Origin: Alphaproteobacteria bacterium
GTDB lineage: Bacteria > Pseudomonadota > Alphaproteobacteria > UBA828
NCBI GenBank assembly: GCA_965237415.1
Contig: CBDEFM010000002.1
Span: forward strand, 2,144,001 to 2,208,000
Length of the DNA: 64,000 nucleotides
Reading direction: 5' to 3'
Numbering within the stretch: position 1 is the stretch's first letter; every line of letters begins with the position of its first letter. A model generated the notes under the pieces. It saw only the letters and a list, made by a program, of their open reading frames with translations. It ran no database searches and had not been told where the DNA came from. Shown here piece after piece: positions 1 to 18,429 of the stretch. Made by a program: the position numbers and the translations under genes.

Positions 1-597
1 ACGGCGCGCGGCGCCCGAACCAGGGCCGCGCCGACGCCACGCACCCGCACGCTTCAGGGCCGGGCGTTGAGCTCCAGGCCGCGCCCTGCCGGGCACCGAC
101 CGGCGTGATGGGACCAATCCAGGATGAACGGGGGAGGTGAGCACCGGGGGCCGCGCGTGCCACGAGTAGTTGGCCGCGCTTGGCGACGATGCCTGCGGAT
201 CTGCCGGGGAAGCGCGCGAGTGCCGGCTGCATGTTCTCCATCGATCCATATCGGGCAGAAGCCCCGTCCACCGGACCGCTCCTGAACGTTTGACTGTCGC
301 CCGCACGCGTCGTTCGGCGGGTGTTTCTGGAGCCGAGGCGACACCAGACACGCAGAGCGCGCCGCATGCAGAACCGCATTCAATTCATTAGGGACACTCG
401 GGCACTTTGAAAAATGCCCACCGCAACAATCTTCATGCCGGAGCGACATGAGGACGTGCCCATCCGCATCGATACCGACCAGCGGCGTCTCCGACCCGCT
501 TGTCACGGAAGAGACCACCGTCCGCCGCTCCCGGTGCGCAGCCTTTCTGTTATAAGCTCATGAACCGACGGTTCCCCTCACCACCGGAGGCAGGTTC

Positions 598-888
598 ATG
601 GCCGACAGTTCCGCGACCAGGATCGACGAACGCGCCCTGACGAAGGGTCAGCGTCGCAAGCTCAATGCCTTGAGGAAGTCGGTGGGAGACGAGATCGGTG
701 CGCAGGCCTTCGCCGCCTGGCTCTCCTCGCAATCGGCGTCAGCGGCGGGCCCGACGGACGAGAACGCCACGCTGATCGTCGACACTCTTTGGCCTCTCGT
801 GCAGCAAGGCACTCTGGCGATCCCGCGCGGCGGCTACCTGCTCAGACGCGGACGCGGACGCATCATCGTCGAGCGCGCAAGCTCATAG
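598..888 (+). CDS. Small hypothetical protein (96 aa)
   Basis: ATG preceded by GGAGG; protein-like composition (ALTKGQRRKLNALRKSVGDEI...GGYLLRRGRGRIIVE); family not recognised. Confidence 0.65.
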   Translation: MADSSATRIDERALTKGQRRKLNALRKSVGDEIGAQAFAAWLSSQSASAAGPTDENATLIVDTLWPLVQQGTLAIPRGGYLLRRGRGRIIVERASS

Positions 889-1399
889 AGCGTCCCACAA
901 CGGCGCCGGCTTCATGACGGCCGCCGCCTCTCAAGCTCCGTCGGATGCGCGCTCTTTCCGGTGTCTGAGATCGACGGGACAAGAGCACCGCACCCCCGTC
1001 CATCTCGCTGGGGACCGAGCCGGAGAATCTCACCGCGCCGGTCGCAGCTGCTCACTCAGCCGACAGTCGCCATCCCTTCATGGCGCGCCACGCCGCCGCA
1101 GTGCTCCAGAGTACGGCGGCCGACAAGTGCCTCCCGTTCCTTCGCGTCTCCCCACCTCGACGCCTCGCAGCGACGCTGCTGCCAAGAGCCGTCGGACACG
1201 CGCGCGACTTCGATTCGCTGTGTTTGCCAATAGTTTTCCGAACGTGGACACGTCCGGGCACGGCAAATCTACGCTCCCCCGAATCACGCCCATTCCGCGC
1301 GGCCCAATCCATCACCTGCTCGGCCAGCTAACCGCTGACCGTCAGGTTACGCATCAGAGAGCACTTGTAACCCACTCATATCCTCCGCACGACATAGCC

Positions 1400-1560
1400 G
1401 CATCTTGCCACTTCGCGGACTCCGGCCTTGACGCACGGCGTGCATTCGGGTTGTGAAGGTTCTGAATGCCGCGATGGTGACGGTTTCCTCGCGCGCAAGA
1501 GCGTCGGTGATGGCCGATAACAGGGCAGCGGCCACGATATCGGCCGTGGCCGAGACGCCG
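1400..1560 (-). pseudogene. HU/IHF-family DNA-binding protein remnant
   Basis: Translation ADIVAAALLSAITDALAREETVTIAAFRTFTTRMHAVRQGRSPRSGK matches the HU core (V.I.GFGTF...R.GRNP.TG) with degenerate residues; N- and C-termini missing; boundaries approximate. Confidence 0.7.
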
Positions 1561-1603
1561 GCCGGGCGCAACGGCGGAATGGTGAGACGGAGCGGGGTAT
1601 ACC

Positions 1604-2782
1604 TCAGTATGTGTCGGGCTCTCCCATCTCGGCCAGTGCCTCGGCGGCCTCGGTGTCGCCCCGCGCGGCGGCCTGGCCGAACCAGTACCGGGCGAGCGCA
1701 AGGTCCTTGGGCACACCCTCTCCATACCGGTAGGTGATGCCGAGGTCGTACTCGGCGTCGGCGAGTCCGCTCTTCACCGCGCGGTCCAGCCACGCGTTCG
1801 CCTTGTCGATGTCCCGGGGCACGCCCTCGCCGTTGAAGTAGTAGATGGCGGTGATGCGCTGCTCGGTCTCGTCGCCCTGCTTCGCCGCCTCTTCGGACCA
1901 GTACGCCGCCTTCTTCAGGTCTTTGGGGTAACCGGGCGCACCCTCGTCGTACACGCCCGCGAGCTCACTCTGCGCGGTCGGGTTCCCCCGTCTCGCCGCG
2001 CGCTCCAGCAGGTCGAGCTCCCTGGCTCCGGGGATGTAGCGGTCGCTTCTCCCGAGCTGGTACTGCGCGTCTGCATTACCTTCTTTCGCCAAGGTCCGCG
2101 TGTGTCCGATCGCCTTCTCGAGACAGGGTGCGAGCGTGCGGTTATCGCAGCGCACCCCGATCACGCCCGCGAGGAACTCGCGCACGGTTCCGGGCGGAAT
2201 GACGCCGGCCATGTTCGCGGTCGATGTCTTCTGGATGCCGACGATATCGTCGTTCGGCGCGAGCACCGCGCCTCCGCTGAATCCGGCCTCGACCATGCGT
2301 TCCATCGGCAGCCGGTAGCTTGCCCTGGTGACGGAGTTCATCTCTTGCGTGGCGCGCAGCGTCGCGAACCGTTCTTTCGGATACCCCACCATGTGGAGCT
2401 GGTCGGCGCGCCCGAGCGGGACGGTGCGCGCGATGCGCAGGTGGCGCGGCATCGATTGCGCCGTCTCGAGCAGGGCGAGATCGTAGGTGGCGGAGATCGC
2501 GATGGGCCCGACGATGTCGACGGTCTCCTGCCCGCGGGCGCGGGTGAGCACGAGGGAAGTGCTGTCCTTGCGCACGAATTCGTAGAGGACATGGGCGTTG
2601 GTGAGTGCGTGCTTCGCCCCGACTGCGACCGCTGTCGCCTGGTTGCGCCGCTTCGTGTCGATGATCTTCCAGACCGCCTGATGGGCGGGATTGTCGGATG
2701 CGTCTTGCGCGGGCTGTGCCGCCGCTACCGTACCCACCGCGATTCCGAGCAGCAGTGCGACCGCGCCTGCAATCCGCTTCAC
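1604..2782 (-). CDS. Secreted trypsin-like serine protease with C-terminal Sel1-like repeats
   Basis: Signal peptide; triad motifs LTNAHV (His), YDLALL (Asp), GFSGG (Ser); several Sel1 repeats (AQYQLG, YFNGEGVPRDIDKA..W, YRYGEGVPKDLALA..W). Confidence 0.85.
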   Translation of the reverse strand: MKRIAGAVALLLGIAVGTVAAAQPAQDASDNPAHQAVWKIIDTKRRNQATAVAVGAKHALTNAHVLYEFVRKDSTSLVLTRARGQETVDIVGPIAISATYDLALLETAQSMPRHLRIARTVPLGRADQLHMVGYPKERFATLRATQEMNSVTRASYRLPMERMVEAGFSGGAVLAPNDDIVGIQKTSTANMAGVIPPGTVREFLAGVIGVRCDNRTLAPCLEKAIGHTRTLAKEGNADAQYQLGRSDRYIPGARELDLLERAARRGNPTAQSELAGVYDEGAPGYPKDLKKAAYWSEEAAKQGDETEQRITAIYYFNGEGVPRDIDKANAWLDRAVKSGLADAEYDLGITYRYGEGVPKDLALARYWFGQAAARGDTEAAEALAEMGEPDTY

Positions 2783-2998
2783 CGGCCGTCCTCCCGTCCT
2801 GGTGCCCCGTGTTCGACTCTACAACCCATCCGTCTCGACACGACAAGTTCCTGCCTGCGGGTCGTTCCGGTCATGCATCCGTCCTCGCTCCCGAACGACC
2901 CATGGCCCTGGCGTCACCACCGCCGCGTGGTCCGGCGTGGAGGAGCGAGACGCGATTCGCGCCGGCCGGTGTGTGCGTAATGCTCCAGCGATACCCGT

Positions 2999-3472
2999 CA
3001 CGGGAAAGCGCTCGAACAGGCCGTCACGAACCATCCGGTTGCCGCCGCACTCCTCGTCGCCCGTCTCTTCTGCCGGCTGGAAGATGAAGCGGACGGTGCC
3101 GTCGAAGCGCCTATTCCGCGACAGGTACCTGGCGGCGCCGAGGAGCATGGTCGAGTGCCCGTCGTGGCCGCAGGCGTGCATCTTGCCGTCGTTCCGGGAA
3201 CGATGCGCGAAGTCGTTCTCCTCCTGCAGAAGCAGCGCGTCCATGTCGGCCCGGAGAGCGATGGCCCTCCCGCTGGTACCGCGTGTCAGCGTCGCCACCA
3301 CGCCCGTGCCGGCGAGGCCCCGGTGCACGTCGAGCCCGAAGCCCGACAGCTTCTCGGCGATGAAATCCGAAGTGCGATGTTCCTCGAAGGCAGTCTCGGG
3401 ATGCTCGTGCAGGTCGCGCCGCCACGCCGTCAGCTCCTCGTGCATCTCTCCAATGTCACGCATCAGATCCAT
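2999..3472 (-). pseudogene. Truncated M20D amidohydrolase (hippurate hydrolase-like), N-terminal ~160 aa only
   Basis: WRRDLHEHPETAFEE, ALRADMDAL, MHACGHDGH and FQPAEE motifs; similarity ends after DGLFERFPV and the ORF runs into unrelated sequence to a stop at 2819. Confidence 0.8.
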
Positions 3473-3569
3473 GATGGGGTGCCCTCCGAGCCATTCTTCC
3501 GCGCATGATCCGACACCAGTGGCGAGCGGACACCGCAGCCGGCACAACCCTATCCACTATCGCCGAGCA

Positions 3570-3625
3570 TGTATCGTACATTACAGAATAATTAATATTG
3601 GCCACACATGTAACGTTCGAGTACA
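3570..3625. promoter_or_regulatory. AT-rich divergent promoter region with two TGTA-N8/9-TACA palindromes (candidate RpiR operators)
   Basis: tgtatcgtacattaca (3570-3585) and tgtaacgttcgagtaca (3609-3625) between the divergent M20 and SBP genes. Confidence 0.45.
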
Positions 3626-3710
3626 TTGACGATGTCGGTCGCCTGAGACCCTGGGGTCGGACTGGACGGGCCGTCGAAACAGGGACCAATAACCAATAGG
3701 GAGGAGCGTC

Positions 3711-4979
3711 ATGCTGAGCATCGGCATAGGAAAGCGCGTCCTGCGCGGAGCGAGGCTGGGTGGCATGGCCGCTCTAGCGCTCGCAATCGCCTCCGGCTTT
3801 TCGATCGGCGAGGCATCTGCCGAAGACAAGCTGGTGAAGATCGGCGTTCTCGCCGCCTTGACCGGCCCTGGTGCCGCAGATGGCGAGGAGACGGTACGCG
3901 GCGCCACAATGGCGTTGGAGGAGTTCCAGGCTGCCGGCGGCATGCCGGGCTACACCTTCGAAATTGAGGTCTCGGACATACGCGATCAGACGTCGGACGC
4001 GGTGATGAGCGGCGTCGAGCGCCTGATGAACGACGACGCGGTCGATTTCATCATGACCGGCTATGCCAGCCTCTCGAACTTCGAGATCGAGTTCATGCGC
4101 GAGGAGGAGATGCCCTACTTCGTCGCGGCCAACTCGCAGCAGACCCGGGAGATCGTGAGCAAGGACCCGGACGCCTACTGGATGGTCTGGTCGCTGACCC
4201 CGTCATACGACGCCTACGAGACCGAGATGCTTCCGGTGGTGGAGGGACTTGCCGCCGGCGGCAAGATCGAGCTCAAGAACAAGAAGCTCGCCATCATCTC
4301 GTCCGACAACGCCTATTCCAAGACGATCTACAACGGGTTGAAAAAGAGCTTCTCCGGCGCCGGCTGGGAGATCGTCGTCGACGAGGTGATTCCGAGCGGC
4401 GAAGTCAACGACTGGCGGGCGTTTCTCGCTAAGGTCCGGCAGGACCCGCCTGACCTCGTGGTCAACACGGATTGGGTGCCGGCCAACGCGTCTACGTTCA
4501 TCACGCAGTTCCTCGAGGACCCGACCGACAGTCTGGTGTTCATCCAGTACGGACCGTCTGTGCCGGAGTTCCTCGACCTGACCAAGGACAAGGCCAATGG
4601 CGTCATCTACAACCTGCTCGGCGGCCATGTTCCCACCATTCCCCGCACCAAGGAGGTGATGGCGAAATACGAGGAGCGCTGGGGCTCGGCCCCCGGTCCC
4701 TATGGGGTTGCTCTCTACGAGATGATGCAGCTCTACCTGGAGGCCGTGCAGAAGGCGGGCGATCCGACCGATCGCCGGGCAATGGCGCAAGCGATTTCAG
4801 AGACGGACAAGCTCGTCTCGGAGGGCCGGCTGGCGTTCGATCCGGCCACCCATCTCGCGCGCCAGGGCAACGACTACATCCCGATCACGTTCTATCAGAT
4901 CTGGGACGGTGAGCGGACGCTGTTCTATCCGGACCAGTGGTCGAACGGCGAGTTCAGGCGCCCGCCCTGGATGCAGTAA
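3711..4979 (+). CDS. Liv-type (HAAT family) ABC transporter substrate-binding protein
   Basis: GGAGGAG RBS, signal peptide, VKIGVLAALTGPGAADG motif; first gene of an ABC operon. Confidence 0.88.
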   Translation: MLSIGIGKRVLRGARLGGMAALALAIASGFSIGEASAEDKLVKIGVLAALTGPGAADGEETVRGATMALEEFQAAGGMPGYTFEIEVSDIRDQTSDAVMSGVERLMNDDAVDFIMTGYASLSNFEIEFMREEEMPYFVAANSQQTREIVSKDPDAYWMVWSLTPSYDAYETEMLPVVEGLAAGGKIELKNKKLAIISSDNAYSKTIYNGLKKSFSGAGWEIVVDEVIPSGEVNDWRAFLAKVRQDPPDLVVNTDWVPANASTFITQFLEDPTDSLVFIQYGPSVPEFLDLTKDKANGVIYNLLGGHVPTIPRTKEVMAKYEERWGSAPGPYGVALYEMMQLYLEAVQKAGDPTDRRAMAQAISETDKLVSEGRLAFDPATHLARQGNDYIPITFYQIWDGERTLFYPDQWSNGEFRRPPWMQ

Positions 4980-5053
4980 GCGGTTCCAGTCGTCGCCCGG
5001 CCACCCTGCGCGGTGGCCGGGCGGCGGCCGCATTCTTCCTGTAGTCTTCCGTC

Positions 5054-5794
5054 GTGGATTCGATCCTCGTCGCCGACAGCGTCTCCAAGTCGTTCGGCTC
5101 GCTGCGCGCCGTCGACGACGTGTCGTTCTCGGTCGCGCAGGGCGAAATATTCGGCATTGCCGGCCCCAACGGCAGCGGCAAGAGCACGCTGTTCAACATC
5201 GTCACGTCCATCCCCTTTCCGGCGGATGCCGGTCGCGTCGTCTTTGAGGGGAAAGACATCCAGCGCATGCGCGCCAACAGGATATGCCGATCGGGCTTGG
5301 CCCGTACCTTCCAGAAGGAAACCGCATTCGACACGCTGTCGACGCTCGACAATGTGATCCTCGGCTCGACCTATGGCCGGGGCACGGACGACAGCGCGGA
5401 GAGCCGGAGGCAGGCCAGCGAGACCCTGGAGTTCGTCGGGATCGGCGCGGACCAGTTCGAAAGGCCCGCGGCGGAGCTCTCCGTATTCGACAAGAAGCGC
5501 CTGATGATCGCGTCCGCCATCGTCACGGAGCCGCGCGTGCTCCTGCTCGACGAGCCCGCATCGGGCCTGACCAAGCCGGAGATCGACGAAACGATCGATC
5601 TGATCCGGCGTCTGAACGAGCGCGGCGTTACGCTGCTCGTCATCGAGCATGTGTTGCCGCTGCTGCTGACGGTGTCGGCGCGTCTGCTCGTGCTCAATCA
5701 CGGGAGCGAGCTCGTCACCGGCACGCCCGACGACGTCATCCGGGATCCCCTTGTCGTGGAAGCCTATCTTGGGTCCCGGGCACGCCATGGGTAA
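5054..5794 (+). CDS. ABC ATP-binding protein (LivG-like)
   Basis: Walker A GPNGSGKST, ARTFQ, LLLDEP, IEH, V.EAYLG. Confidence 0.9.
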   Translation: MDSILVADSVSKSFGSLRAVDDVSFSVAQGEIFGIAGPNGSGKSTLFNIVTSIPFPADAGRVVFEGKDIQRMRANRICRSGLARTFQKETAFDTLSTLDNVILGSTYGRGTDDSAESRRQASETLEFVGIGADQFERPAAELSVFDKKRLMIASAIVTEPRVLLLDEPASGLTKPEIDETIDLIRRLNERGVTLLVIEHVLPLLLTVSARLLVLNHGSELVTGTPDDVIRDPLVVEAYLGSRARHG

Positions 5795-6534
5795 TGGCGA
5801 GGTACCGGCAGCTCATGGCTGAGCCGATCCTCGACGTCCGCGCGCTCTCGGTGGGCTACGGCAAGACCCAGGTCCTCTGGGACATCAGCCTCACGGTGCC
5901 CGAGGATCAGCGGATCGGTCTGTTCGGCCCCAACGGACACGGCAAGACGACCCTGCTGCGTACGATCTCCGGCCTGCTCAGGCCCTGGAGCGGCGAGGTC
6001 CATCTCAGGGGCGAGCGGATCGACAAGGCATTGCCGCGCGCCATCGTCGATCGAGGCGTCGTCCAGGTGCCGCAGGGAAACGTGCTCTTTCCTGAGCTCA
6101 CGGTGGCGGAAAACCTGAGACTGGGCGCCTATTGCCGGCGGGCCCGGCCGCGGTTGGCCGACAATCTGGCGCGGGTCTACGGCTTGTTTCCACGCCTCAA
6201 GGAGCGTCGGCGCCAGCAGGCGAAGACCCTTTCCGGCGGCGAACGCCAGATGCTCGCGATCGGCGCGGGCCTCATGGGCGAGCCGACGATGCTCATGCTG
6301 GACGAGCCGACACTCGGCCTCGCGCCGAAGCTGAAGGACGAGTTGTTGCAGGCAATCGCGGAAATCTCGCGCTCGGGCGTGCCGTTGATGCTGGTGGAGC
6401 AAGATCTGGAGTTCCTGCTCGCGCTCACGGACCGCCTCTACATGATCAACCACGGCGTGGTCGCGCTCGACCTCGACGCCAGCGAAGGGTTCGATCACGA
6501 CCAGATCATTCAGATGTATTTCGGCAAGGAGTGA
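5794..6534 (+). CDS. ABC ATP-binding protein (LivF-like)
   Basis: GPNGHGKTT, LSGGERQMLAIG, MLDEPTLGLAP; TAATG overlap with upstream stop (alternative start 5815). Confidence 0.88.
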   Translation: MARYRQLMAEPILDVRALSVGYGKTQVLWDISLTVPEDQRIGLFGPNGHGKTTLLRTISGLLRPWSGEVHLRGERIDKALPRAIVDRGVVQVPQGNVLFPELTVAENLRLGAYCRRARPRLADNLARVYGLFPRLKERRRQQAKTLSGGERQMLAIGAGLMGEPTMLMLDEPTLGLAPKLKDELLQAIAEISRSGVPLMLVEQDLEFLLALTDRLYMINHGVVALDLDASEGFDHDQIIQMYFGKE

Positions 6535-6537
6535 CGC

Positions 6538-7413
6538 GTGGACATTGGCACCGCGCAATCGGTCCTGCTGAGCGGCATCGTCCTCGGCTCGCTCTACGCC
6601 CTGATGGCGACCGGCCTCTCCCTCATCTGGACCACGCTCGGCATCTTCAACTTCGCCCACGGCGTGTTCATGACGATCGGCGCTTTCGTCGCCTGGCAGA
6701 TCGGCGCCGACCTGGGCTGGGGTATGGGGCCGGCGGCAGGCATCGCCGTCGCCATTGCCGCCCTGATCGGCCTGGGCTGCCTCTCGGAGTTCATTCTGGT
6801 CCGCCCGTTCCTGCGCCGGCCCGATGTGGTCCTCGTTGCGGTGATGACGACGCTGAGTGCCGCCATCTTCCTGGAGAACTCGGCTCTCCTGGTATGGGGT
6901 GGGCGTTACAAGCAGCTTCCTCCCCTGATCGAGGGCAAGGTGGGCATGCTGTCGACAGCGATCTCGACCCACGAGGTGCTGATCATTGCGGTGGCGCCGC
7001 TTACCTTGTTCGCGCTCTGGGCCTTCCTCAAGTTCACGCGCACCGGTTCTGCGATCCGCGCCGTTGCGCAGAACCGGGAATCGGCGCTCCTCATGGGCAT
7101 GAACGTGCCGCTGCTCTACAGCTTGGCGTTCGGGCTCTCGGCGGCGCTCGCCGGCTTTGCCGGCATACTGCTCGGCTCCATCCGCTTCATCACGCCGGGG
7201 CTCGGAAACGAGCCGCTGGTGAAGGCGCTGATCGTCGCCATCTTCGGCGGTCTCGGCAGCCTCGGCGGCACCATCGGCGCGGCCTACGTCATCGGCCTGA
7301 TGGAAGCAATCAGCATGTTCTTCATCGGGCTCTACTGGACGCCTGCGGTCCTTTTCGGCGTGATGATCCTGGTGCTGCTGGGCCGGCCGACCGGCCTGTT
7401 CGGCAAGCGGTAG
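6538..7413 (+). CDS. ABC permease (LivH-like)
   Basis: GSLYALMATGLSLIW...FNFAHG, TG.AIRAVAQN, RPTGLFG; hydrophobic. Confidence 0.9.
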   Translation: MDIGTAQSVLLSGIVLGSLYALMATGLSLIWTTLGIFNFAHGVFMTIGAFVAWQIGADLGWGMGPAAGIAVAIAALIGLGCLSEFILVRPFLRRPDVVLVAVMTTLSAAIFLENSALLVWGGRYKQLPPLIEGKVGMLSTAISTHEVLIIAVAPLTLFALWAFLKFTRTGSAIRAVAQNRESALLMGMNVPLLYSLAFGLSAALAGFAGILLGSIRFITPGLGNEPLVKALIVAIFGGLGSLGGTIGAAYVIGLMEAISMFFIGLYWTPAVLFGVMILVLLGRPTGLFGKR

Positions 7414-7419
7414 GGCGCG

Positions 7420-8415
7420 ATGCGTGAGTTGCTCACCGGGCCGAACCTGGCGAGGCTGATCTGCCTCCTCATCCTGATCCTGCTACCGCTCGTCATCCCT
7501 TCACCTTATATCCGCCACCTGCTGATCATCGCCTTCATCTACGCGATTGTCGCGTCGAATTGGGATCTGAGTCTGGGATATGCCGGCGTGTTCAACTTCG
7601 GCCACATCGCCTTCTTTGCGGCCGGCGTCTATGGCTCGGCGATCATGTCGAAGACGATCGGCATCACGCCCTGGCTAACGATTCCCCTTGCGGGGGTGGT
7701 CGGCGTCATCGCTGCGCTGATCGTCTGCCTGCCGGTGCTGCGGCTGAAGGGCATCTACGTCGTGCTGGTCACCTTCGCCTTCAGCCAACTCTGCTTTCAG
7801 CTTGTCCTGAGCCAGGAGGAGATCACTGGCGGTTCCATGGGCATGCCGCTGCTGCCGCCGCTCAAGATCGGGGACTACAATTTCGCCCGCGACGGCAAGT
7901 TCGGCTACTACTACGTCGGACTGTTCCTGCTTGTCCTCTCCACCATCTACCTCCACCGTCTGGTCCATTCGCGCTTCGGCACGAGCATCATCGCTCTGCG
8001 TGACAACGAGGACTATGCGATCAGCCGAGGCATCTCACTGGCACGCCAGCGCATGCTCACGCTAGGCCTGAGCGCATTCTTCACTGGCGTCGCAGGGGGC
8101 TTCTATTCGACATACGTGCGGGTCGCCTCGCCGGAAATTTTCGGGTTCGGCTTCCTGTCTCTGGCGCTCTCGATGCTGCTGTTAGGCGGGCTCAACAGCA
8201 TCTATGGACCAATTCTCGGCGCCTTCGTGATCACGCTTCTGTCGGAAGCGATGGTCGACCTTGGGCCGATGCGCTTCCTCATCATCTCGGCACTCATCAT
8301 CCTGATGCTGCTGTTCTATCCGGGCGGCCTCATCAATGCTCTTCAGCAGACGTCATCTTTGTTTTCAAAGTCCGGTATGGCCGTAAAGTACATTCGAAGG
8401 CTTGTAGGAAGATGA
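7420..8415 (+). CDS. ABC permease (LivM-like)
   Basis: GYAGVFNFGHIAFFA.G.Y, LRLKGIY, A.RDNE, PGG motifs. Confidence 0.9.
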   Translation: MRELLTGPNLARLICLLILILLPLVIPSPYIRHLLIIAFIYAIVASNWDLSLGYAGVFNFGHIAFFAAGVYGSAIMSKTIGITPWLTIPLAGVVGVIAALIVCLPVLRLKGIYVVLVTFAFSQLCFQLVLSQEEITGGSMGMPLLPPLKIGDYNFARDGKFGYYYVGLFLLVLSTIYLHRLVHSRFGTSIIALRDNEDYAISRGISLARQRMLTLGLSAFFTGVAGGFYSTYVRVASPEIFGFGFLSLALSMLLLGGLNSIYGPILGAFVITLLSEAMVDLGPMRFLIISALIILMLLFYPGGLINALQQTSSLFSKSGMAVKYIRRLVGR

Positions 8416-8815
8416 TGTTCTCTACGTGCGCGACAGGACAAATTACTTCGTGTGGGACTGCCTTTTATGGACGCGTTGGAGGTTCGAACCTTATCGCCGC
8501 CAACCCGCCGAACCTGCCTCTGCGTCTACCACCGTACCCACGTTGCGAACGCTTATTGGATACACACGGTGAAGTCCCCTACGAGATCCGTATACCCCTC
8601 GTCCTCGAAAATACCAGCCGCAGAAAGAGACAATGCGCAGCAGACTTGCACCCGTGCACGATGCAGCCGCCGAAGAGCCTCTCGGCCGACTGACGGTGTC
8701 CTCGCCATATCCTTGGCCACCCGCAGGAGACAGGACCGAGCAGTAAATAGCTTTCCAAATGGACGAGCCGGTGAGGACCGGTCAGGGTAACAAACGAACC
8801 AAGGAGACCGATCAC

Positions 8816-10243
8816 ATGAGCATAGAACTGGAACAATATGACGCCTTGGGTCTGGCTGAACTCGTGGCGCGTAAGGAAGTTAAGCCGATCGAGCTGGTGG
8901 AAGCAGCGATCGAGCGGATCGAACGCGTCAATCCCGAACTCAACTGCGTGATGTTCAAAAACTATGACGCGGCGCGCGCGGCCGCCGAGCAGCCGCTTCC
9001 CGACGGGCCGTTCACCGGCGTGCCCCTGCTCCTCAAGGATCTGTTGACGGCATACCGGGGCCTCCCGCTGACGGGCGGCTGCCGTTACCTCCAGGACTTC
9101 GTCGCGCCCGACGACAGTGTCATTGCCGAGCGCATCGCCGAGGGCGGCTTCATCCGCCTGGCGAAGACCGTCACGCCTGAGATGGGCTATTGCGTCGCAT
9201 CCGAGCCGCCGCTCTACCCGCCGGCGCGCAACCCGTGGAATCCCGATCATACGCCGGGCGGTTCCAGCGGCGGCTCGGGCGCCGCCGTGGCTGCACGCAT
9301 TCTGCCCCTGGCGACCGCCAACGATGGCGGCGGATCGACCCGCATCCCCGCCTCGAACAACGGCCTGGTGGGGCTCAAGCAGTCGCGTGGCCGCACCACG
9401 ACGGCGCCGCTCTACGCGGATCTCTGGTACGGCTGTGTGGTCGAGGGTTGCGTGTCGCTGAGCGTGCGCGACCACGCGGCCTACCACGACCTGACCCAGT
9501 ATGCCGTACCCGGCGACGCCAACGCGCACGCGCGGCCCGAGACGCCGTTCCTGGACGAAGTCGGCAAGGATCCCGGCCGCCTCAAGATCGGGCTGATCAC
9601 GAAGGCCGCCAACGGACGGCCGGTCCATCCGGAGTGTGTGGCGGCGGCGAACAACGCGGCCAGGCTGTGCGCGTCGATGGGCCACGCGATCGAAGAGGTG
9701 GAGTACAGCTTCGATTTCGATGCGCTGGGGGAGGTCTTTTCGCGCATCGCCTGCGCGGCGACGGCGGCCGGCATCCACAGCCTGGAGCCGGTGATGGGAC
9801 GCCCGCCGGGGGAGGGCGAGCTGGGCAACGTGATCCGGGAGATGGTCGAGCGCGGCGAGCGAATTGGCGCTCCGGCCCTGGCCCAGGACATCGAGGCCAT
9901 GCACATGGTGGGCTGGACCATCGCCGGGAACTGCGCACCCTACGACGTGGTCATCACCCCGACCATGCCCAACCCGCCTCACCGGGTCGGCTACTACGAC
10001 ATGTCCCTGCCGTTCAAGAAGTACAACAACGAGCTCTTGATGCCCGAGGTCGTCTTCACGTTGCCGCACAACGTCAGCGGCCTGCCGGCCATCTCGCTGC
10101 CGCTGCACTGGAGCGCGGACGGCCTGCCCTGCGGCGTGCAATTCATCGCAAGCCACGCAAACGACGCGCTCCTGTTTCGCCTGGCGGCGCGCCTGGAGGA
10201 GGCGCAGCCCTGGTTCGACGCACTACCCCCCGTCCACGCCTGA
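8816..10243 (+). CDS. Amidase signature (AS) family enzyme
   Basis: AAGGAG RBS before ATG 8816; GVPLLLKDL (Lys), [19 protein letters not shown]; GLP.GVQ C-terminal motif. Confidence 0.9.
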
Positions 10244-10486
10244 GGCCTCGGCGCTCTGACCTCGCAGGCATTGGTATCGCCGCTGCGAGTACCGCGTGCA
10301 GCAACGGGATTGGATCAGCCGGGCAATGGAACCGATATCTACCAACCTCGTCGCTATGGTTTTTCCAGTTGACCGGTTGCCGCGAGCCGGCGAGTCAGGC
10401 TCTGAATCGATTCGAGCAGGGTCTTCGCATAAGGCTCGTGAGCCCGACGAGGTCGTTCCATACGAGATAGATCAGCTCGCCGCTCG

Positions 10487-11386
10487 TCACGGTCCTTTTT
10501 CCTCGGGGCCTTGCGGGAATTCTTGATCGTCCCAGGTATATCCCTTGCGCAGGTGCTCAAGCGTCGAGATCCGCTGGCGGGTGGCGTCGCCGAGCCGACC
10601 CACGATCCCTGCGACCAGCGCCTCGACCAGCGCAATACAGGGCACCAGGGTGTCGTAGGGCGAGGGGGCATCTATATCTACCGTCAGCACCTGGTCGGCG
10701 AGATCGGCGATGGGGGAGAGCCATGGGTCAGTAATGAGCACGATCGTGCCGCCCCGCTTCTTGGCGGCCTCGGCAAGAGCGATCGTATCCTTCTGATAAC
10801 GGCGCACATCGAACATCACGACCACGTCCCGACGACAAACGTCGAGCAGGGCATCGGCCCTTCCCTGAGGGGTGTAGGCGATGACGCGCGCGCGGGGACG
10901 CAGCTGGTAGAGGTGGGCGTGCAACATCTCTGCACAGGCTTGCGTGAAGCGCCCCCCGCTGGTGTAGACCGTCCGCCGACGGTCCGCGAGAAGGGCGACC
11001 ACCTCATCGAACTCGCCCCGGGGCAGGTTGGCGAAGGTCGATTTGACACTGTGGATGAAGGAATCGCCGGCGATGTCGAGGAGATGTTCGCGGCGTTGCT
11101 CAGGCGGGCTCCGACCATAGAGGCGAAGCGGCGAATCGATGCGCGCGGCCACGTCGCGCTCGAGTGCGCGTTGGAATTCGGCATAGCCGGCGAAGCCGAT
11201 CTTGCTCGCGAACCGCAAGACTGTCGGCCCGCTCACGCCCGAGCGCGCGGCAAGCCCTGCCACGGTGTCGAATCCCGCCATCAGGTTGCTGGCAAACAGC
11301 GCTCTGGCCACCCGCCTCTCTGCCGGTGTCAGGTCGGCCGTCCGCTGGTGGATGAGATCTCCGAGAGTCGTGCCGGGATCGGTCAT
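10487..11386 (-). CDS. MurR/RpiR-family transcriptional regulator
   Basis: LTPAERRVA...LAARSGVSGPTVLRFA.KIGF.GY.EFQ HTH plus SIS domain (ITDPWLSP). Confidence 0.9.
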   Translation of the reverse strand: MTDPGTTLGDLIHQRTADLTPAERRVARALFASNLMAGFDTVAGLAARSGVSGPTVLRFASKIGFAGYAEFQRALERDVAARIDSPLRLYGRSPPEQRREHLLDIAGDSFIHSVKSTFANLPRGEFDEVVALLADRRRTVYTSGGRFTQACAEMLHAHLYQLRPRARVIAYTPQGRADALLDVCRRDVVVMFDVRRYQKDTIALAEAAKKRGGTIVLITDPWLSPIADLADQVLTVDIDAPSPYDTLVPCIALVEALVAGIVGRLGDATRQRISTLEHLRKGYTWDDQEFPQGPEEKGP

Positions 11387-11399
11387 GGCTGGCCCCACG

Positions 11400-11434
11400 T
11401 GTAATACCTATTATATTTCTGGCCACCTATTACA
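11400..11434. promoter_or_regulatory. Candidate RpiR autoregulatory operator
   Basis: tgtaatacctattata...tattaca immediately upstream of rpiR; resembles the palindromes at 3570-3625. Confidence 0.4.
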
Positions 11435-11699
11435 CGACTGTGAGAAATTTCAATGTTCTGATCCTGTGTCCCAATGGCGTGAACGCCGACCCGAGGGCGT
11501 GATTCAGCACTCAGATCAGGACTCGCAAGTCACTTCGGTCGACTTCGGCATGCGTTGCCGAGCCTCCGGCGTCCGTCCGTTCACCGGGTCGGTCGGAGCG
11601 GTTAGATGCGGCGGGAAAGCGCCGAGCAGGCGGTGACCTTGGGGGCCCAAGAGGCCTATCCTTGCGAGTTGAGCGGCGCGTGACCCGCCAACATCTTGG

Positions 11700-11935
11700 G
11701 TATCGATCCCCTCCCGGTGCCGTGTCGCGGCAGGATAGATGGTCTCCCGCTCCGGCCGGTCGTCGACCAGCAGGAAGGCCCGGTCGACGGTCAGCCCCTG
11801 GGCCGAGGCGATGGTCATCGCATAGCCGTAGTCGAGGCGGATGTTGTCGTGAAAGTCGCGGATCTCGTCGTGCTGGAACCTCACCTACCGCCCGTCGTCG
11901 GTGCGGGCGGTGATAACAACGGAGGGCTGTCGGGT
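11700..11935 (-). pseudogene. Fragment of a TraA-like conjugative relaxase/helicase C-terminal domain
   Basis: RLDYGYAMTIASAQGLTVDRAF...YPAATRHR matches the RecD/TraA helicase motifs GYA.T.H.AQG.TVD and Y.A.TR.R; no start or rest of gene; boundaries approximate. Confidence 0.7.
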
Positions 11936-12110
11936 CGCTGCGAACGGACTATCTGATGGGTTCTCAGTCACCCGTCCGGCCCATCCCGGCTTGGCCGAAG
12001 GCTTGCAAACGAGCCGCCGTCTATCGCGGATCCGTAGTCTGGAAGTACCTGGACGGACCTGCAGAGAGATTCCTTGTGATTCCCAATCACGGATCAAAGC
12101 AAGTGGGACA

Positions 12111-12152
12111 AAGAAAAACGCCTCTAACGGGCTGACTTAGATGCGTTTTCTT
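12111..12152. terminator. Imperfect hairpin flanked by A/T tracts directly 3' of the tRNA fragment
   Basis: aagaaaaacgcctctaa-cgggctgac-ttagatgcgttttctt inverted repeat. Confidence 0.5.
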
Positions 12153-12197
12153 TGGTTGCGGGGGTAGGATTTGAACCTACGACCTTCAGGTTATGAG
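12153..12197 (-). mobile_element. att-like site: 3' half of a tRNA-Met(CAT), from the anticodon loop to CCA
   Basis: Reverse complement CTCATAACCTGAAGGTCGTAGGTTCAAATCCTACCCCCGCAACCA has the anticodon loop, T-arm GTTCAAATC and CCA; 5' half absent; 8 bp from the integrase stop codon. Confidence 0.88.
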
Positions 12198-12205
12198 AAA
12201 GAGAA

Positions 12206-13405
12206 TCAAACAGCATCCGAGCGCACCTTTTCCTCCAGGAGATGGGCGCCGATGCTGGCTGCAATCCTGGCAGCTGAGTCCCTGACCGAGTCTCGCGTCA
12301 GGTGGGCGTAGCGAGCCGTGGTCTCTACCTGTGTGTGCCCGAGTAGCTTTCCGATCACCGGCAGGCTCTCCCCGAGAGCCAGCGCTCGGCTGGCGAAGGA
12401 GTGCCTGAGATCGTGAAGTCGCACATCCTCCAATCCCGCTCGCTTTCGCACAATCTCCCACGGGTCGTTGACGTTCCGCATGTGCGTCCCCGGCTTCTTG
12501 CCGGGGATCACCCAGGGACTGCCAGAAAGACGCGGTAGAGTCGCCAGCACTTGTACCGCCGCCGGAGACAATGGAACGGCGCGCGCACCTGTCTTGGTGT
12601 CCTTCAAGTTAAGCTCGCCCGCATCGAGATCGACGCCTTTCCACCGAAGCGTCAGGATCTCATTGCGGCGGCACCCCGTCAGCATCAGCAGCCGGATCGC
12701 TGCAACCGCGTATGCCGACACTCCGCCCTCCGTCTCCGCCTCGACAAGCACCCGTCCCAGACGACGAAACTCCTCCTCGGTCAGGAAGCGCTCGCGCCTG
12801 CGCTCCTTGTACTTGACAGCGGACCGGCAAGGATTGCGTCCCTCCGGAACCACTCCCCAAGCTTCGGCCATACCGTACACGCGCGACAGTGTATCCACGA
12901 CCCGATTGGCCATGGTGGGGACCTCCCGCAACTTGTAATGCAGGTTGGCGACATGCTCTCGCTCAATCTCCGCCAGGGGCATGTCGCCAAGCGCGGGCAG
13001 GATGTGCTTCTCGATGGTCAGACGGTACATCTCCGCCGTCCTCGCCTTGCAGCGTACTGCAACATGCTCGTCGAGATAGCGCGCCGCGATCTCGGCCACC
13101 GTCGGCCCGCCCTTCGGCTTCGACGCCATCGGCTCGGCGATGGGCTCCTCTCCCGCCTTGATCCGGGCGATGATCAGGGCTGCCCGACGACGTGCCTGGT
13201 CAGCGGTGATGACCCCATGTCTGCCGACCGTGACCCGCTTCGGCCCGTCGGGCCCTCGAGTCTGCACGACGTAGTACTTGCTGCCAGACGCATAGACCCG
13301 CACACCGAAGCCCGTCAGCTCGCGGTCCCAGAACACCGTGTCCTTCTCGACTTCGAGCGCCTCCACCGTGCGCCTGGAGATCGTCGTGTTGTGCAGCTTT
13401 GCCAC
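12206..13405 (-). CDS. Tyrosine recombinase/integrase with N-terminal arm-binding domain (copy 1)
   Basis: FWDRELTGFGVRV arm domain; catalytic TGCRRNE, DTKTG, HDLRHSFAS, LLGH...TTARY. Confidence 0.93.
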   Translation of the reverse strand: MAKLHNTTISRRTVEALEVEKDTVFWDRELTGFGVRVYASGSKYYVVQTRGPDGPKRVTVGRHGVITADQARRRAALIIARIKAGEEPIAEPMASKPKGGPTVAEIAARYLDEHVAVRCKARTAEMYRLTIEKHILPALGDMPLAEIEREHVANLHYKLREVPTMANRVVDTLSRVYGMAEAWGVVPEGRNPCRSAVKYKERRRERFLTEEEFRRLGRVLVEAETEGGVSAYAVAAIRLLMLTGCRRNEILTLRWKGVDLDAGELNLKDTKTGARAVPLSPAAVQVLATLPRLSGSPWVIPGKKPGTHMRNVNDPWEIVRKRAGLEDVRLHDLRHSFASRALALGESLPVIGKLLGHTQVETTARYAHLTRDSVRDSAARIAASIGAHLLEEKVRSDAV

Positions 13406-13459
13406 GCCGCCACTCCGTCGCCTTGGTTCTGTCCCGTCGATTGTCCGAACCCGTCTACC

Positions 13460-14644
13460 CTACGCCGCAGCCGCATCCTCCGGCATGATGTCGACGCCGA
13501 TGCTGCCGCCGACCTTGGCAGCCGATGCCCTCTCGGTGTCCCGTGCCAAATGAGCGTAGCGGGCGGTGGTCCCGATCTTGGAATGACCCAACAGCCGGCC
13601 GATCATGCTCAGGCTTTCGCCCAGCGCCAGCGCGCGGCTCGCATATGAATGCCGGAGGTCATGGATCCGAACGTCATCCAGCCCGGCCTTCGCCCGCAGA
13701 CGCCGCCACGCCTCGTCCACGTTCGACAGATGAGCGCCCGGTTTCCTGCCGGCGATCACCCAGGGGTTGCCGGGAACGCGCGGGATGCCGGCGAGTACGT
13801 CTTCAACCGTGGGCGTCAGCGGGATCATGCGCGCGCCCGTCTTGGAATCGCGCAACCGGAACTCTCCCGCCGTCCGGTCTACATCGTCCCACCGCAGCGT
13901 GGCGATTTCGTTGCGCCGACAGCCGGTCAAGATCAGCAAGCGGATCGCATGGATCGAATAGGGCCAGACCGAGCCATCTGCCTCGGCCTCATCCAGCACT
14001 CGGCCGAGGCGGCGGTACTCGTCTTCCGTCAGGAACCGCTCGCGCTTATGCTTCTTGTACATGCGCACGGACCGACAGGGATTCATGCCAGGCGGTGCCA
14101 GTCCCCACGCCTCGGCCAGCGAGAACAGCTTGGACAGCACGTTCAGGACATGGTTGGCCTGATAGGGCTTGTCGCGGAGCTTGTAGTGCAGCGCCATGAC
14201 CTGCGCGCGGTCCACCGCGCCGATGGCAAGCGAGCCCAGCTCGGGCACGATGTAGGAATAGAGCGCATGCCGATAGAGCTCCACGGTCTTCGGACGGCAG
14301 TTCACCTTCACATGCCCGCTCATGCAGCGCTCCGCCAGGTCGGCCACCGTGAGCTCGGGCGCCGGCGGAGCGGGGACCGGATCCATGCCACGCTTAATGC
14401 GGTCGATGATCGTCGCCGCTTCCTTGCGGGCCTGCTCGGCGGCGATATCGCCGTGCCGGCCGATGGTCACGCGCTTCGGGCCGCTCGGTCCGCGCGTCTG
14501 CACGACGTAGGTCTTTCGCCCCGTACGATGGACCCTCACCCCGAAACCGGGGAGATCGCAATCCCAGAAGACGGCATCCTTGCTCTTGACGCGGAGGCCG
14601 TCCACGCTGCGTTTGGAGATCTTGAGCTGGCTCCTCTTCGGCAT
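13460..14644 (-). CDS. Tyrosine recombinase/integrase with N-terminal arm-binding domain (copy 2)
   Basis: FWDCDLPGFGVRV; TGCRRNE, DSKTG, HDLRHSYAS, LLGH...TTARY; clear paralogue of copy 1. Confidence 0.93.
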   Translation of the reverse strand: MPKRSQLKISKRSVDGLRVKSKDAVFWDCDLPGFGVRVHRTGRKTYVVQTRGPSGPKRVTIGRHGDIAAEQARKEAATIIDRIKRGMDPVPAPPAPELTVADLAERCMSGHVKVNCRPKTVELYRHALYSYIVPELGSLAIGAVDRAQVMALHYKLRDKPYQANHVLNVLSKLFSLAEAWGLAPPGMNPCRSVRMYKKHKRERFLTEDEYRRLGRVLDEAEADGSVWPYSIHAIRLLILTGCRRNEIATLRWDDVDRTAGEFRLRDSKTGARMIPLTPTVEDVLAGIPRVPGNPWVIAGRKPGAHLSNVDEAWRRLRAKAGLDDVRIHDLRHSYASRALALGESLSMIGRLLGHSKIGTTARYAHLARDTERASAAKVGGSIGVDIMPEDAAAA

Positions 14645-14954
14645 GGCCCTTCCCGAACCTCAAATTCTGTGTTCCGGCATGCGGCGCGGGCGTGTAATCA
14701 ATCTGCATACGACCGCAATCGAGTCAGGGCTCATTCAAGCGGACCCGTGTCCTCGACGCAAGGGGTTTCTGATGGCGATGAGGGAGAATATTTGCGTAAT
14801 ATCAGCAGTCTATCGCACTACAGCGTATCCAACTGCGTTCGTGACATACCCACACAAGCTTACACCATCTGTGTCGCGTCCAGGCGTTCGATCCGCCAGG
14901 AGCGGGCCGAAAAGCGTAGCGGGGACTACGGTTGAGGCTCGCGACGCCGCGGGC

Positions 14955-15235
14955 GGGCGCTCGATCACGATGGGATTGGCTGCCATGAGGTCGATCAACG
15001 CGCGGCGGGAGAGGCTTTCGTCGGCCATGCCGGCCTCACGGTAGGCGGCCTCCTTCCCCCGCATCGCCGCGCGAGGCTCCAGGCGGAGCTTCGAGAGCAC
15101 GGCATCGATCTCGTCGGCGGACGGCGGTGTCTTCAGATAGTCCACGATTTCCGGCTCGATGCCCCGGTCCCGCAACAACTGCAATGCTTGACGGGACTTG
15201 GAGCAGCGCGGGTTGTGGTAAATAGTCACCGCCAT
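14955..15235 (-). pseudogene. arsC: ArsC-family (glutaredoxin-type) arsenate reductase, C-terminally truncated
   Basis: GGGAGGG RBS; MAVTIYHNPRCSKSR...NPIVIERP, then unrelated sequence instead of the usual IVV....IGRPPE tail; frame continues to a stop at 14810. Confidence 0.75.
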
Positions 15236-15257
15236 GTCGTCCCTCCCGGTGAATCGC

Positions 15258-17837: not shown

Positions 17838-18119
17838 ATGGAAGTCGAATGGGACGATGCCAAGAGCGATGCCTGTCTCGCGCAGCGCGGCTTCGATTTT
17901 GCCCACGCCATCCGCGCCTTTCTGGATGACGACCGGATCGTCGGCCGGGACCGCCGTTGGGACTACGGCGAGGACCGCTATCGGCTGCTCGGGGCGGTAG
18001 AGGGTCGCGTGTTCGTCGTGATCTACACCGTGCGCGGTTCGGCCATCCGCATCATTTCGGCGCGCAAAGCCAACGGCAAGGAGGTTCGGGAGTATGAGCA
18101 GAACACGCGTCAGGATTGA
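17838..18119 (+). CDS. BrnT-family toxin
   Basis: MEVEWDDAKS...RGFDFA..., DYGEDRY..LG, VVIYT.R...IRIISARKAN.KE. Confidence 0.9.
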   Translation: MEVEWDDAKSDACLAQRGFDFAHAIRAFLDDDRIVGRDRRWDYGEDRYRLLGAVEGRVFVVIYTVRGSAIRIISARKANGKEVREYEQNTRQD

Positions 18120-18429
18120 CCCGGACAATCCGCGCAGCCTTCCTCCGGGACGGGTCGATCATGCGGTGCTGGACGCGACGACCGAGGAGGATATCGCGCG
18201 GCAGGCGCGCGATGACGACGCCGAGGCGATGCAGGATATGGCGCGGTTTGCCCGTCGGGTGCGCAGGCGCCTGGGGCTGACACAGGTAGAGTTCGCTCGC
18301 CGCATCGACGTGCCGCACGAGACGATCCGCAACTGGGAGCAAGGCAAACGCGGGCCCACGGGCGCTGCCAGGGCCTTGCTCAGGATTCTCGACAAAGCGC
18401 CCGAGACGGCCCTGCGCGTGCTCGACTGA
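18094..18429 (+). CDS. XRE-family HTH antitoxin
   Basis: Overlaps toxin; RRRLGLTQVEFARRIDVPHETIRNWEQGKRGPTGAARALL. Confidence 0.88.
   Translation: MSRTRVRIDPDNPRSLPPGRVDHAVLDATTEEDIARQARDDDAEAMQDMARFARRVRRRLGLTQVEFARRIDVPHETIRNWEQGKRGPTGAARALLRILDKAPETALRVLD

Follow-up and report, generated by a model that had tools for sequence, protein, structure and literature searches.

A conserved pair of arm-type tyrosine integrase genes at the end of a composite genomic island in an alphaproteobacterial genome

The integrase pair and its leader

This study concerns two adjacent tyrosine integrase genes, here called int1 and int2, in a stretch of 64,000 nucleotides from the genome of Alphaproteobacteria bacterium (lineage UBA828; assembly GCA_965237415.1, contig CBDEFM010000002.1, positions 2,144,001 to 2,208,000). 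The whole stretch is referred to as the window; coordinates prefixed with C1 or C2 belong to the same genome unless another genome is named. Arm-type integrases, each encoded by one gene, are the usual drivers of genomic islands. If such integrases were kept as a fixed pair, with both active sites long preserved, part of island mobility would run on a two-protein recombinase, or on a two-site logic for which there is no worked-out example.

Our results confirm the description in an earlier note on this DNA of two related, co-oriented genes that lie 54 bp apart and encode proteins of 394 and 399 amino acids (Table 1). The open reading frames (ORFs) are intact as described, and the proteins are 57% identical across 385 amino acids. 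Each has an arm-binding domain, Arm-DNA-bind_3 (PF13356), above the cut-off of 27 bits, as well as the catalytic domain PF00589, in which the set R-K-H-R-H-Y is complete in both proteins (R243, K268, H328, R331, H354 and Y363 in P0001 numbering). The central core-binding domain is recognized in int2 by two models, PF14659 and PF22022; int1 reaches 20.1 bits on PF22022, where the cut-off is 27. None of the NCBIfam models matches int1 or int2 at its cut-off, and their relatives in the PDB are remote and restricted to the catalytic domain. Among plasmids of cultured bacteria, relatives occur in 8 records at an identity of at most 48%, in 7 of them at a single place and in one (Paracoccus) at two places. 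Taken individually, int1 and int2 are unremarkable as arm-type integrases, and both look catalytically competent from their residues. They also appear to be co-transcribed, given their tight spacing and the absence of a terminator-like site from the 54-bp spacer in a terminator scan.

Upstream of int1 lies a leader of ~220 nt that is AT-richer and contains motifs common to several lineages (CCCCTTGC.., GCTTGAAT, ..CGTATGC..TTGATTAC). Leader homology has its median outer limit at -219, and a copy of 81% identity is preserved at the remnant C2:355032-355308. A sigma-70 promoter scan returned 0 sites. The leader probably comprises the promoter and the arm-type sites.

Table 1. Position of the features discussed, in window coordinates unless a contig is given
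Feature	Position	Strand	Evidence
Leader, 224 nt	14645..14868	-	Alignment A1 of 8 loci, window compared by eye
int1 (P1-type arm-type tyrosine integrase, P0001, 394 aa)	13460..14644	-	ORF; PF00589 77 bits, PF13356 43.0 bits
int1-int2 spacer, 54 bp	13406..13459	-	GGAG 7 nt ahead of the int2 GTG start
int2 (P2-type arm-type tyrosine integrase, P0002, 399 aa)	12206..13405	-	ORF; PF00589 87 bits, PF13356 41.2 bits, PF14659, PF22022
tRNA-fMet 3' fragment, 45 nt (anticodon loop to CCA)	12153..12197	-	Begins 8 bp past the int2 stop
Inverted repeat AAAACGC/GCGTTTT after the tRNA-fMet fragment	12110..12152	-	Alignment; uncalled by the terminator scan
122-aa ORF, weak C-terminal SF1 helicase match (fragment)	11516..11884	-	PF01443 E 3e-4, PF13538 E 1.5e-3
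Composite island (48,454 bp), part within the window	1..14868		Empty sites in G004, G026 and G027; Pfam; GC
Right att core CTGTGTCGCG	14869..14878		Alignment of 26 repeat copies and both island ends; junction sequences
Left att core partner CTGCGTCGCG	C2:2110405-2110414 (outside window)		Same alignment; junction sequences
Right part of the ~162-nt dispersed repeat, without its last ~40 nt	14869..14960		~30 genome copies; alignment; full-length unit
ArsC/YffB-family gene, 3' end cut off by the insertion	14954..15235	-	PF03960 positions 1-59 of 79
Four tRNA-fMet 3' fragments	C2:2290641-2290685(+), C2:3588935-3588979(+), C1:697017-697061(+), window 12153-12197(-)		
Other P1-like to P2-like pairs in this genome	C1:541217-543601, C1:699782-697296, C2:3102608-3100123, C2:3850915-3848636		Two with a third integrase behind

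Conservation and ancestry of the pair

A scan with peptides of int2 alone, with one genome per species, gave 79 loci in 46 assemblies from the best 80 of 160 relatives. A gene of the int1 type (P1) stands directly upstream of the int2-type gene (P2) in 68 of the 76 assessable loci, and the reversed order was found 0 times. Full P1 and full P2 genes are present in 60 of the 79 loci, a partial P1 in 6 and a partial P2 with P1 in 2; the remainder comprises 5 full P2 genes alone, 3 partial P2 genes alone and 3 loci at a contig edge. Homologues are therefore not mostly single, in line with what the earlier note expected of a genuine pair. Apart from one titled as a 'Spongia' genome bin, all records are titled as metagenome-assembled genomes. 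The labels include Alphaproteobacteria (Rhodospirillaceae, Micropepsaceae, Rhodobacterales, Thalassobaculaceae and others) and some Gammaproteobacteria (Ca. Rariloculaceae and Ca. Poriferihabitaceae), several of the latter being on multi-megabase chromosomes; Nitrospinota labels on short contigs may be binning errors.

An unbiased census of five genomes (E<=1e-60) is consistent with this order. It found 8 adjacent same-strand pairs, of which 5 are clearly P1 followed by P2, 0 are reversed and 3 have an ambiguous first member ahead of a P2-type second; everything else that matched, for the most part less similar, is a single or a fragment. In a further count P1 precedes P2 in 46 of 50 pairs; for the 40 genus loci of the tree, which were selected because their DNA resembles the pair as a whole, this order is given by construction, and the claim of a fixed order rests on the census and the int2-peptide scan. 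All 12 genus genomes first searched contain matches, 6 to 89 each, and the genome studied here has 53 ORFs that match int1 or int2. As judged from these surveys, the pair is a conserved two-recombinase unit that is co-inherited in many uncultured marine bacteria.

The phylogeny bears out the earlier suggestion that position-1 and position-2 proteins would form separate clades. In a tree of 101 proteins, 45 position-1 proteins and 1 single form one clade, and 45 position-2 proteins and 3 singles form the other (SH-aLRT 95 each), with int1 in the former and int2 in the latter. Seven rows are basal, namely one single, two proteins from a third position and the pairs of G025 and G028. Branching within one clade mirrors that within the other (Mantel r 0.907 over 45 loci, with 0 of 999 permutations as high). 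P1 and P2 proteins of the same locus have an identity of 0.548, versus 0.541 between loci. Partners are thus no more alike than non-partners, which argues for one old duplication without gene conversion. The two genes have been passed on jointly from a time that predates diversification of the family.

The earlier note proposed to test whether the ratio of nonsynonymous to synonymous substitution (dN/dS) is below 1 at both positions. It ranged from 0.116 to 0.418 for P1 and from 0.100 to 0.348 for P2 (0.10-0.42 overall) in 14 of 14 sister comparisons. On these ratios both genes are under purifying selection, and each of the six catalytic residues is retained in 46-47 of the 47 proteins per clade.

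Two unrelated elements that integrated successively at one place, with one of the integrases now decaying, might also leave two such genes side by side. The genome does contain integrase arrays with third members and many integrase fragments, and the island is a mosaic, which would suit such an accretion. Yet chance accretion is contradicted by the separate, mirrored clades, by dN/dS values below 0.42 for both genes and by the fixed order, in which P1 precedes P2 in 68 of 76 loci and follows it in none. The tight spacing and the equal similarity of partners and non-partners, which points to one old duplication, also speak against it. Hence, we regard this explanation as highly improbable.

Alternatively, one partner might be the recombinase and the other a directionality or regulatory factor, such that integration and excision are divided between them and an excisionase is replaced. 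In agreement with the earlier note, no excisionase was recognized: none of the 36 small ORFs located around the island ends and inner arm (described below) matches an Xis/AlpA-type family. The conservation of the pair and its apparent co-transcription would also be in line with a division of labour. However, excisionases are small and easily missed, and the scan covered the island ends only. Furthermore, both genes have kept the six catalytic residues under purifying selection, which would be needless for a purely architectural partner. We therefore consider this role unlikely.

Several side observations concern the pairs in other loci. In this genome, two arrays have a third integrase behind the pair (C1:695627-700750 and C2:3846867-3850915), and the third-position proteins group in the tree with a single integrase that lies beside a tRNA-fMet fragment (fragment B, see below). 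In one relative, the P1-type gene of an otherwise intact pair (L006, G003:C2:2512403-2513590) has an in-frame TAG; by its sequence, then, the first gene of some pairs is broken. A TrwC-type relaxase/helicase gene converges on int2 within 3 kb in 13 of the 79 loci, at L118:4180-7017(-) and in 12 others, with 0-2.1 kb of variable DNA between them (e.g. a TetR gene). Some of the pairs may accordingly be parts of elements that are mobilizable or conjugative.

C-terminal integrase fragments directly follow int2-type genes at L117:4190-4372, at L116:~4200-4290 and at C1:543616-543867 of this genome. Those of L117 and L116 start exactly at the HDLRH codons and overlap the int2 stop codon, and many further integrase fragments in this genome begin near residue 306-330. 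These start points may represent a junction, or merely a conserved end that stays detectable. Insertion of the module into integrase genes at the HDLRH codons would fit L117 and L116; it was rejected because the fragment in array B of this genome starts earlier.

Island ends, dispersed repeat and tRNA fragment

The pair lies at the right end of a 48.5-kb island and reads inward. In all three relatives fetched for this purpose (G004, G026 and G027), the flank that ends at C2:2110374 in this genome meets the flank that begins at C2:2158954, with 38 bp between them. Because the flanks are joined in three relatives, the intervening 48.6 kb is an insertion in this genome; the element proper spans C2:2110415-2158868 (48,454 bp). 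G004 stands at 96% identity, and the flank from C2:2158954 onward is the ArsC/MscS side. The GC content of the island is 62.9%, versus 66.7% for the chromosome. Contrary to the earlier note, which saw no cargo beside the integrases and an att core at a tRNA-Met sequence next to int2, the pair thus ends an insertion that carries cargo. The element ends, which the note had proposed to map, were located through the empty sites of relatives and are not at the tRNA sequence.

Both junctions are in the two parts of a split dispersed repeat. The full unit is ~162 nt long, GC-rich and hairpin-rich, and has ~30 copies in this genome, of which 26 are alignable (e.g. C2:3148808 and C2:2089827). Four of five relatives searched contain 12-29 copies, with none in G025, and an Rfam search of the repeat gave no match below E 0.7. 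The left island end (C2:2110375-2110414) consists of the first 40 nt of the repeat, finishing in CTGCGTCGCG. The right end opens with CTGTGTCGCG and continues with the remaining repeat minus its last ~40 nt. The consensus core common to both junctions is CTGYGTCGCG (10 bp). The junction of leader, core and repeat recurs at the remnant C2:355105, at the orthologous pair of G005 and, in G002, at a pair that belongs to another lineage. The loose-end consensus of public metagenome contigs at 14869 pointed to the left part of the repeat. The frame of the interrupted ArsC/YffB gene continues in the relatives to ...GRPPENVLSIL* across the empty site. At the sequence level, such a division of the repeat around a common core is what one expects when site-specific recombination cuts a target. 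With its split target and empty site, and with the junction losses discussed below, the insertion belongs with site-specifically integrated genomic islands.

A second copy of the inner left arm, 83% identical, lies inside the island at C2:2123363. It is preceded by an HU-family C-terminal fragment (PF00216 positions 55-89 of 90) that is cut at TGTCGCG, and not by the repeat. This cut fits site-specific recombination better than transposon ends, and the presence of a second inner arm beside the HU fragment indicates that the island is composite.

Some repeat copies have an insert of ~27 nt. In G003 and G004, several copies break off at the core or beside it (query positions 48-171, or 12-53), which may be the signature of other inserted elements.

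The tRNA sequence beside int2 deserves separate consideration. The earlier note placed it 8 bp from the int2 stop, which is correct (12153-12197). However, it is only a 45-nt 3' fragment of tRNA-fMet, and ARAGORN found 0 tRNA genes in the window, with 0 Rfam matches at gathering score; nor does the tRNA list of the genome have an entry between C2:2110375 and 2158953. The only full gene that matches, C2 c[2326353-2326429], is 170 kb off and agrees with the 45-mer at 43 of 45 positions. It probably stands at the end of an rRNA operon, since it is downstream of the tRNA-Ile/tRNA-Ala pair C2:2329903-2330085.

The genome contains the 45-mer in 3 exact copies and a fourth with one deletion, none of them within a tRNA gene (Table 1). 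All four fragments start at the identical anticodon-loop position, and each is 8-160 bp from an integrase gene of the broad int1/int2 family, in two geometries. Their T-arm variant is TAGG..CCTA, versus CAGG..CCTG in the resident gene, which is a compensating pair. The inverted repeat that follows the window fragment resembles the DNA 3' of the genuine tRNA-fMet gene and of fragment B. Owing to the common cut position, the integrase neighbours and this genuine-gene-like 3' DNA, the window fragment (fragment A) and fragment B look like displaced target fragments.

These fragments might be explained by two att specificities, in which each integrase would work alone as a homotetramer, int1 on the CTGYGTCGCG site by the leader and int2 on a tRNA-fMet-type site by its stop codon. 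This would provide alternative landing sites, or capture of the DNA between two sites. It would account for the separate core at the other end of the module and for the shared cut position of all four fragments beside integrases of the family. Moreover, the DNA past the window fragment looks like ordinary chromosome, with a Liv/amidase cluster that is 87% identical to a chromosomal region of G004. Besides lying directly behind int2 here, the 45-mer is degenerate after int2 in a 75%-identical pair of G021, where homology reaches window position 12153, and is found farther downstream of int2 in L085 (0.6 kb) and L123 (2.4 kb). Yet it is near int2 in only four loci, namely OWN_A, L085 and L123 in a scan of 127 loci from two partly overlapping sets, and L024 in a separate alignment. 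The closest orthologous pair, in G005, lacks the fragment, and the fragment of array C points the other way and goes with a third integrase. No tRNA gene adjoins a pair either: the ARAGORN calls are two of odd length in the 79 int2-scan loci (L082 and L093), neither of them beside a pair, and in the genus loci a tRNA-Gly more than 3.5 kb from the pair (L006). Two specificities are a serious rival reading, though rather unlikely. The fragment is the fossil of an earlier junction or a mark of a second att specificity, and the present att site is elsewhere.

Joint action, related systems and island cargo

Our preferred interpretation, which we hold with a probability of roughly 0.55, is that int1 and int2 form a bicistronic integration module that arose by one old duplication, acts jointly, and ends a composite island inserted site-specifically in a repeat copy. 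One arm-type (P4/SXT-like) integrase would have duplicated long ago, after which the leader, P1 and P2 spread as a unit. The island would have entered at the 10-bp core in one copy of the repeat, interrupting the ArsC/YffB-family gene, and the many repeat copies would offer many landing sites. Most likely, both integrases are needed for recombination of the element and act together on its att sites. The simplest form would be a mixed tetramer, by analogy with XerC/XerD and with Tn554, which needs both TnpA and TnpB. A complex prediction for int1 and int2 (alignments A3 and A2) scored 0.23, at a mark of 0.32, and weighs neither way. Of the two-recombinase element in the earlier note, the conserved pair thus stands, with its clades, dN/dS and pairing, whereas the cargo-free element at a tRNA att site does not.

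Several results weigh against this interpretation. First, the insertion is unclean: 38 bp of the empty site have been lost and the outer ~40 nt of the repeat are missing, and the relatives have no repeat at the empty site. For these reasons the repeat halves could be the element's own termini rather than the attB. This is countered by the second inner arm, which adjoins the HU fragment instead of the repeat. Second, the present ends need not both belong to the int1-int2 pair, because the island is composite (second arm copy, IS66 and IS3). Third, the core is flanked in the attB by the symmetric GCCTG/CAGGC, as seen by eye in the repeat alignment, and no domain is specially diverged between the clades. 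The ratio of between-clade to within-clade identity is 0.84-0.89 in all three domains, and only one column is fixed differently (R257 versus L). Two distinct half-site specificities are therefore not indicated. Fourth, mirrored trees would follow from linkage alone, and the tree's 40 genus loci owe their selection to the resemblance of their DNA to the entire pair. Fifth, five full P2 genes and one P1-clade gene stand alone, so single genes may suffice. Finally, neither a usable joint nor an excision product was seen in Logan metagenome contigs, which are short and in which paralogues, tRNAs and the repeat interfere.

Another possibility is that the 2.6-kb module is a minimal mobile element, RIT-like but with two arm-type integrases, which hops alone and is at the island end incidentally. 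Copies within a genome often lose their similarity beyond about -230 of int1 and about +30 of int2; between these limits they are 93-97% identical, and their flanks are unrelated (L117/L120 and L116/L123). There are also up to 89 matches per genus genome. However, no terminal direct or inverted repeats surround the module at the L117/L120 boundaries or here, where none was found within 11400-15800 apart from the paralogy of int1 and int2. Also, the DNA behind int2 is cargo as far as the next core or flank, both here and in G005, and other copies have long downstream blocks in common. We therefore give little credence to a module that hops alone.

More tentatively, P1 and P2 could be an obligate two-integrase machine of an undescribed kind that uses ~160-nt dispersed repeats of the host as attB. 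If so, there would be dozens of landing sites per genome, and repeat targeting would explain both why pairs have multiplied to tens per genome in the genus and how the module came to spread between alpha- and gammaproteobacterial lineages of symbiont type. If targeting of a dispersed repeat is general, it would account in a simple way for the tens of such integrases in some uncultured genomes of symbiont type. Island-finding software built around a single integrase and a tRNA target would mis-map such islands, as happened in the earlier note.

The pair resembles known arm-type (P4/SXT-like, DUF4102) island integrases in its Arm-DNA-bind_3 domain and R-K-H-R-H-Y catalytic domain, in a core-binding region that is recognized in int2 and falls below the cut-off in int1, in the inward-reading gene by the island end, and in attL and attR with a short common core. 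It differs from them in having two co-evolving paralogues and a multi-copy dispersed repeat, not a tRNA gene, as target. XerC and XerD are two paralogous tyrosine recombinases that work as one heterotetramer; Xer proteins are without arm domains and their genes are usually unlinked. They too are a paralogous pair and may serve as a model for the proposed joint action, but int1 and int2 score 55-65 bits where the NCBIfam equivalog cut-offs are 330-335. In tripartite integrative and conjugative elements the three integrases are unlinked, and each uses att sites of its own. These elements share with the present island the use of more than one tyrosine recombinase, which here form a two-gene operon.

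RIT elements have several tyrosine recombinases in fixed order, in position-specific families with catalytic motifs; they are multi-copy, and their mobility is unproven (PMC3414803). The pair shares the fixed order, the position-specific families, the catalytic motifs and the multiple copies. In contrast, RIT elements consist of three genes that overlap by 4-8 bp (PMC3414803), and RitA, RitB and RitC are grouped among the 'simple' tyrosine recombinases (PMC8138268). There are only two genes here, int1 and int2, which are separated by 54 bp, encode arm-binding domains and are close paralogues (57%), and the pair is not a RIT element.

Tn554 is described as having adjacent tyrosine recombinases, TnpA and TnpB, that are both required for transposition (PMC3414803). 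Here, too, two adjacent recombinases are perhaps both needed. Tn554-type elements differ in having tnpC as a third gene, and in some of them one recombinase is unusually long. BIM differs as well, being one recombinase with an unrelated protein. The GInt and strand-biased circularizing (SE) elements are described as having a conserved four-gene recombination operon. GInt is alike in being a mobile island that depends on more than one tyrosine recombinase; both differ from the present case, in which only the leader and two genes are conserved between copies.

A displaced tRNA 3' fragment beside an integrase marks the attR junction in Islander-type islands (PMC4383910). The 45-nt fragment from the anticodon loop beside int2 resembles such a mark. 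However, the other end here has no intact tRNA and the island ends are in the split dispersed repeat, so this is not an Islander-type tRNA-gene island. Searches of the full-text literature, with most subscription journals uncovered, yielded no account of arm-type integrases that occur as conserved pairs.

According to Pfam, the cargo in the window comprises a Sel1/trypsin protein, an M20 fragment, a Liv-type ABC transporter, an amidase and RpiR. The whole island contains IS66, IS3, patatin, HU, a SMODS-domain protein, a QueC-like protein, oxidoreductases and ABC transporters, and additionally a further simple tyrosine recombinase; no conjugation genes were seen in its content. The helicase fragment in the window (Table 1) was considered as a link to the TrwC relaxases of other loci and rejected, as it has no TrwC match. 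A low-GC patch (50-55%) of the island at C2:2125671-2129408 (L022:17671-19893; L023:788-1408) holds the SMODS-domain nucleotidyltransferase and the QueC-like protein, and the patatin-like phospholipase lies upstream of it at C2:2118007-2119029 (L022:10007-11029). These three genes may be defence cargo.

Outside the island, a BrnT/BrnA-type toxin-antitoxin pair occupies window positions 17838-18429, between the MscS-like and thiamine pyrophosphate (TPP) enzyme genes, in a stretch that has no match in the closest relative G004 (gap at query 11670-12515). The orthologous pair in G005 (L005:11300-16200) is followed by ~5 kb of low-GC DNA, with a HIRAN-domain protein, a P-loop ATPase and unknowns, and then by glyA. 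This is a small island in which other cargo stands behind the same module.

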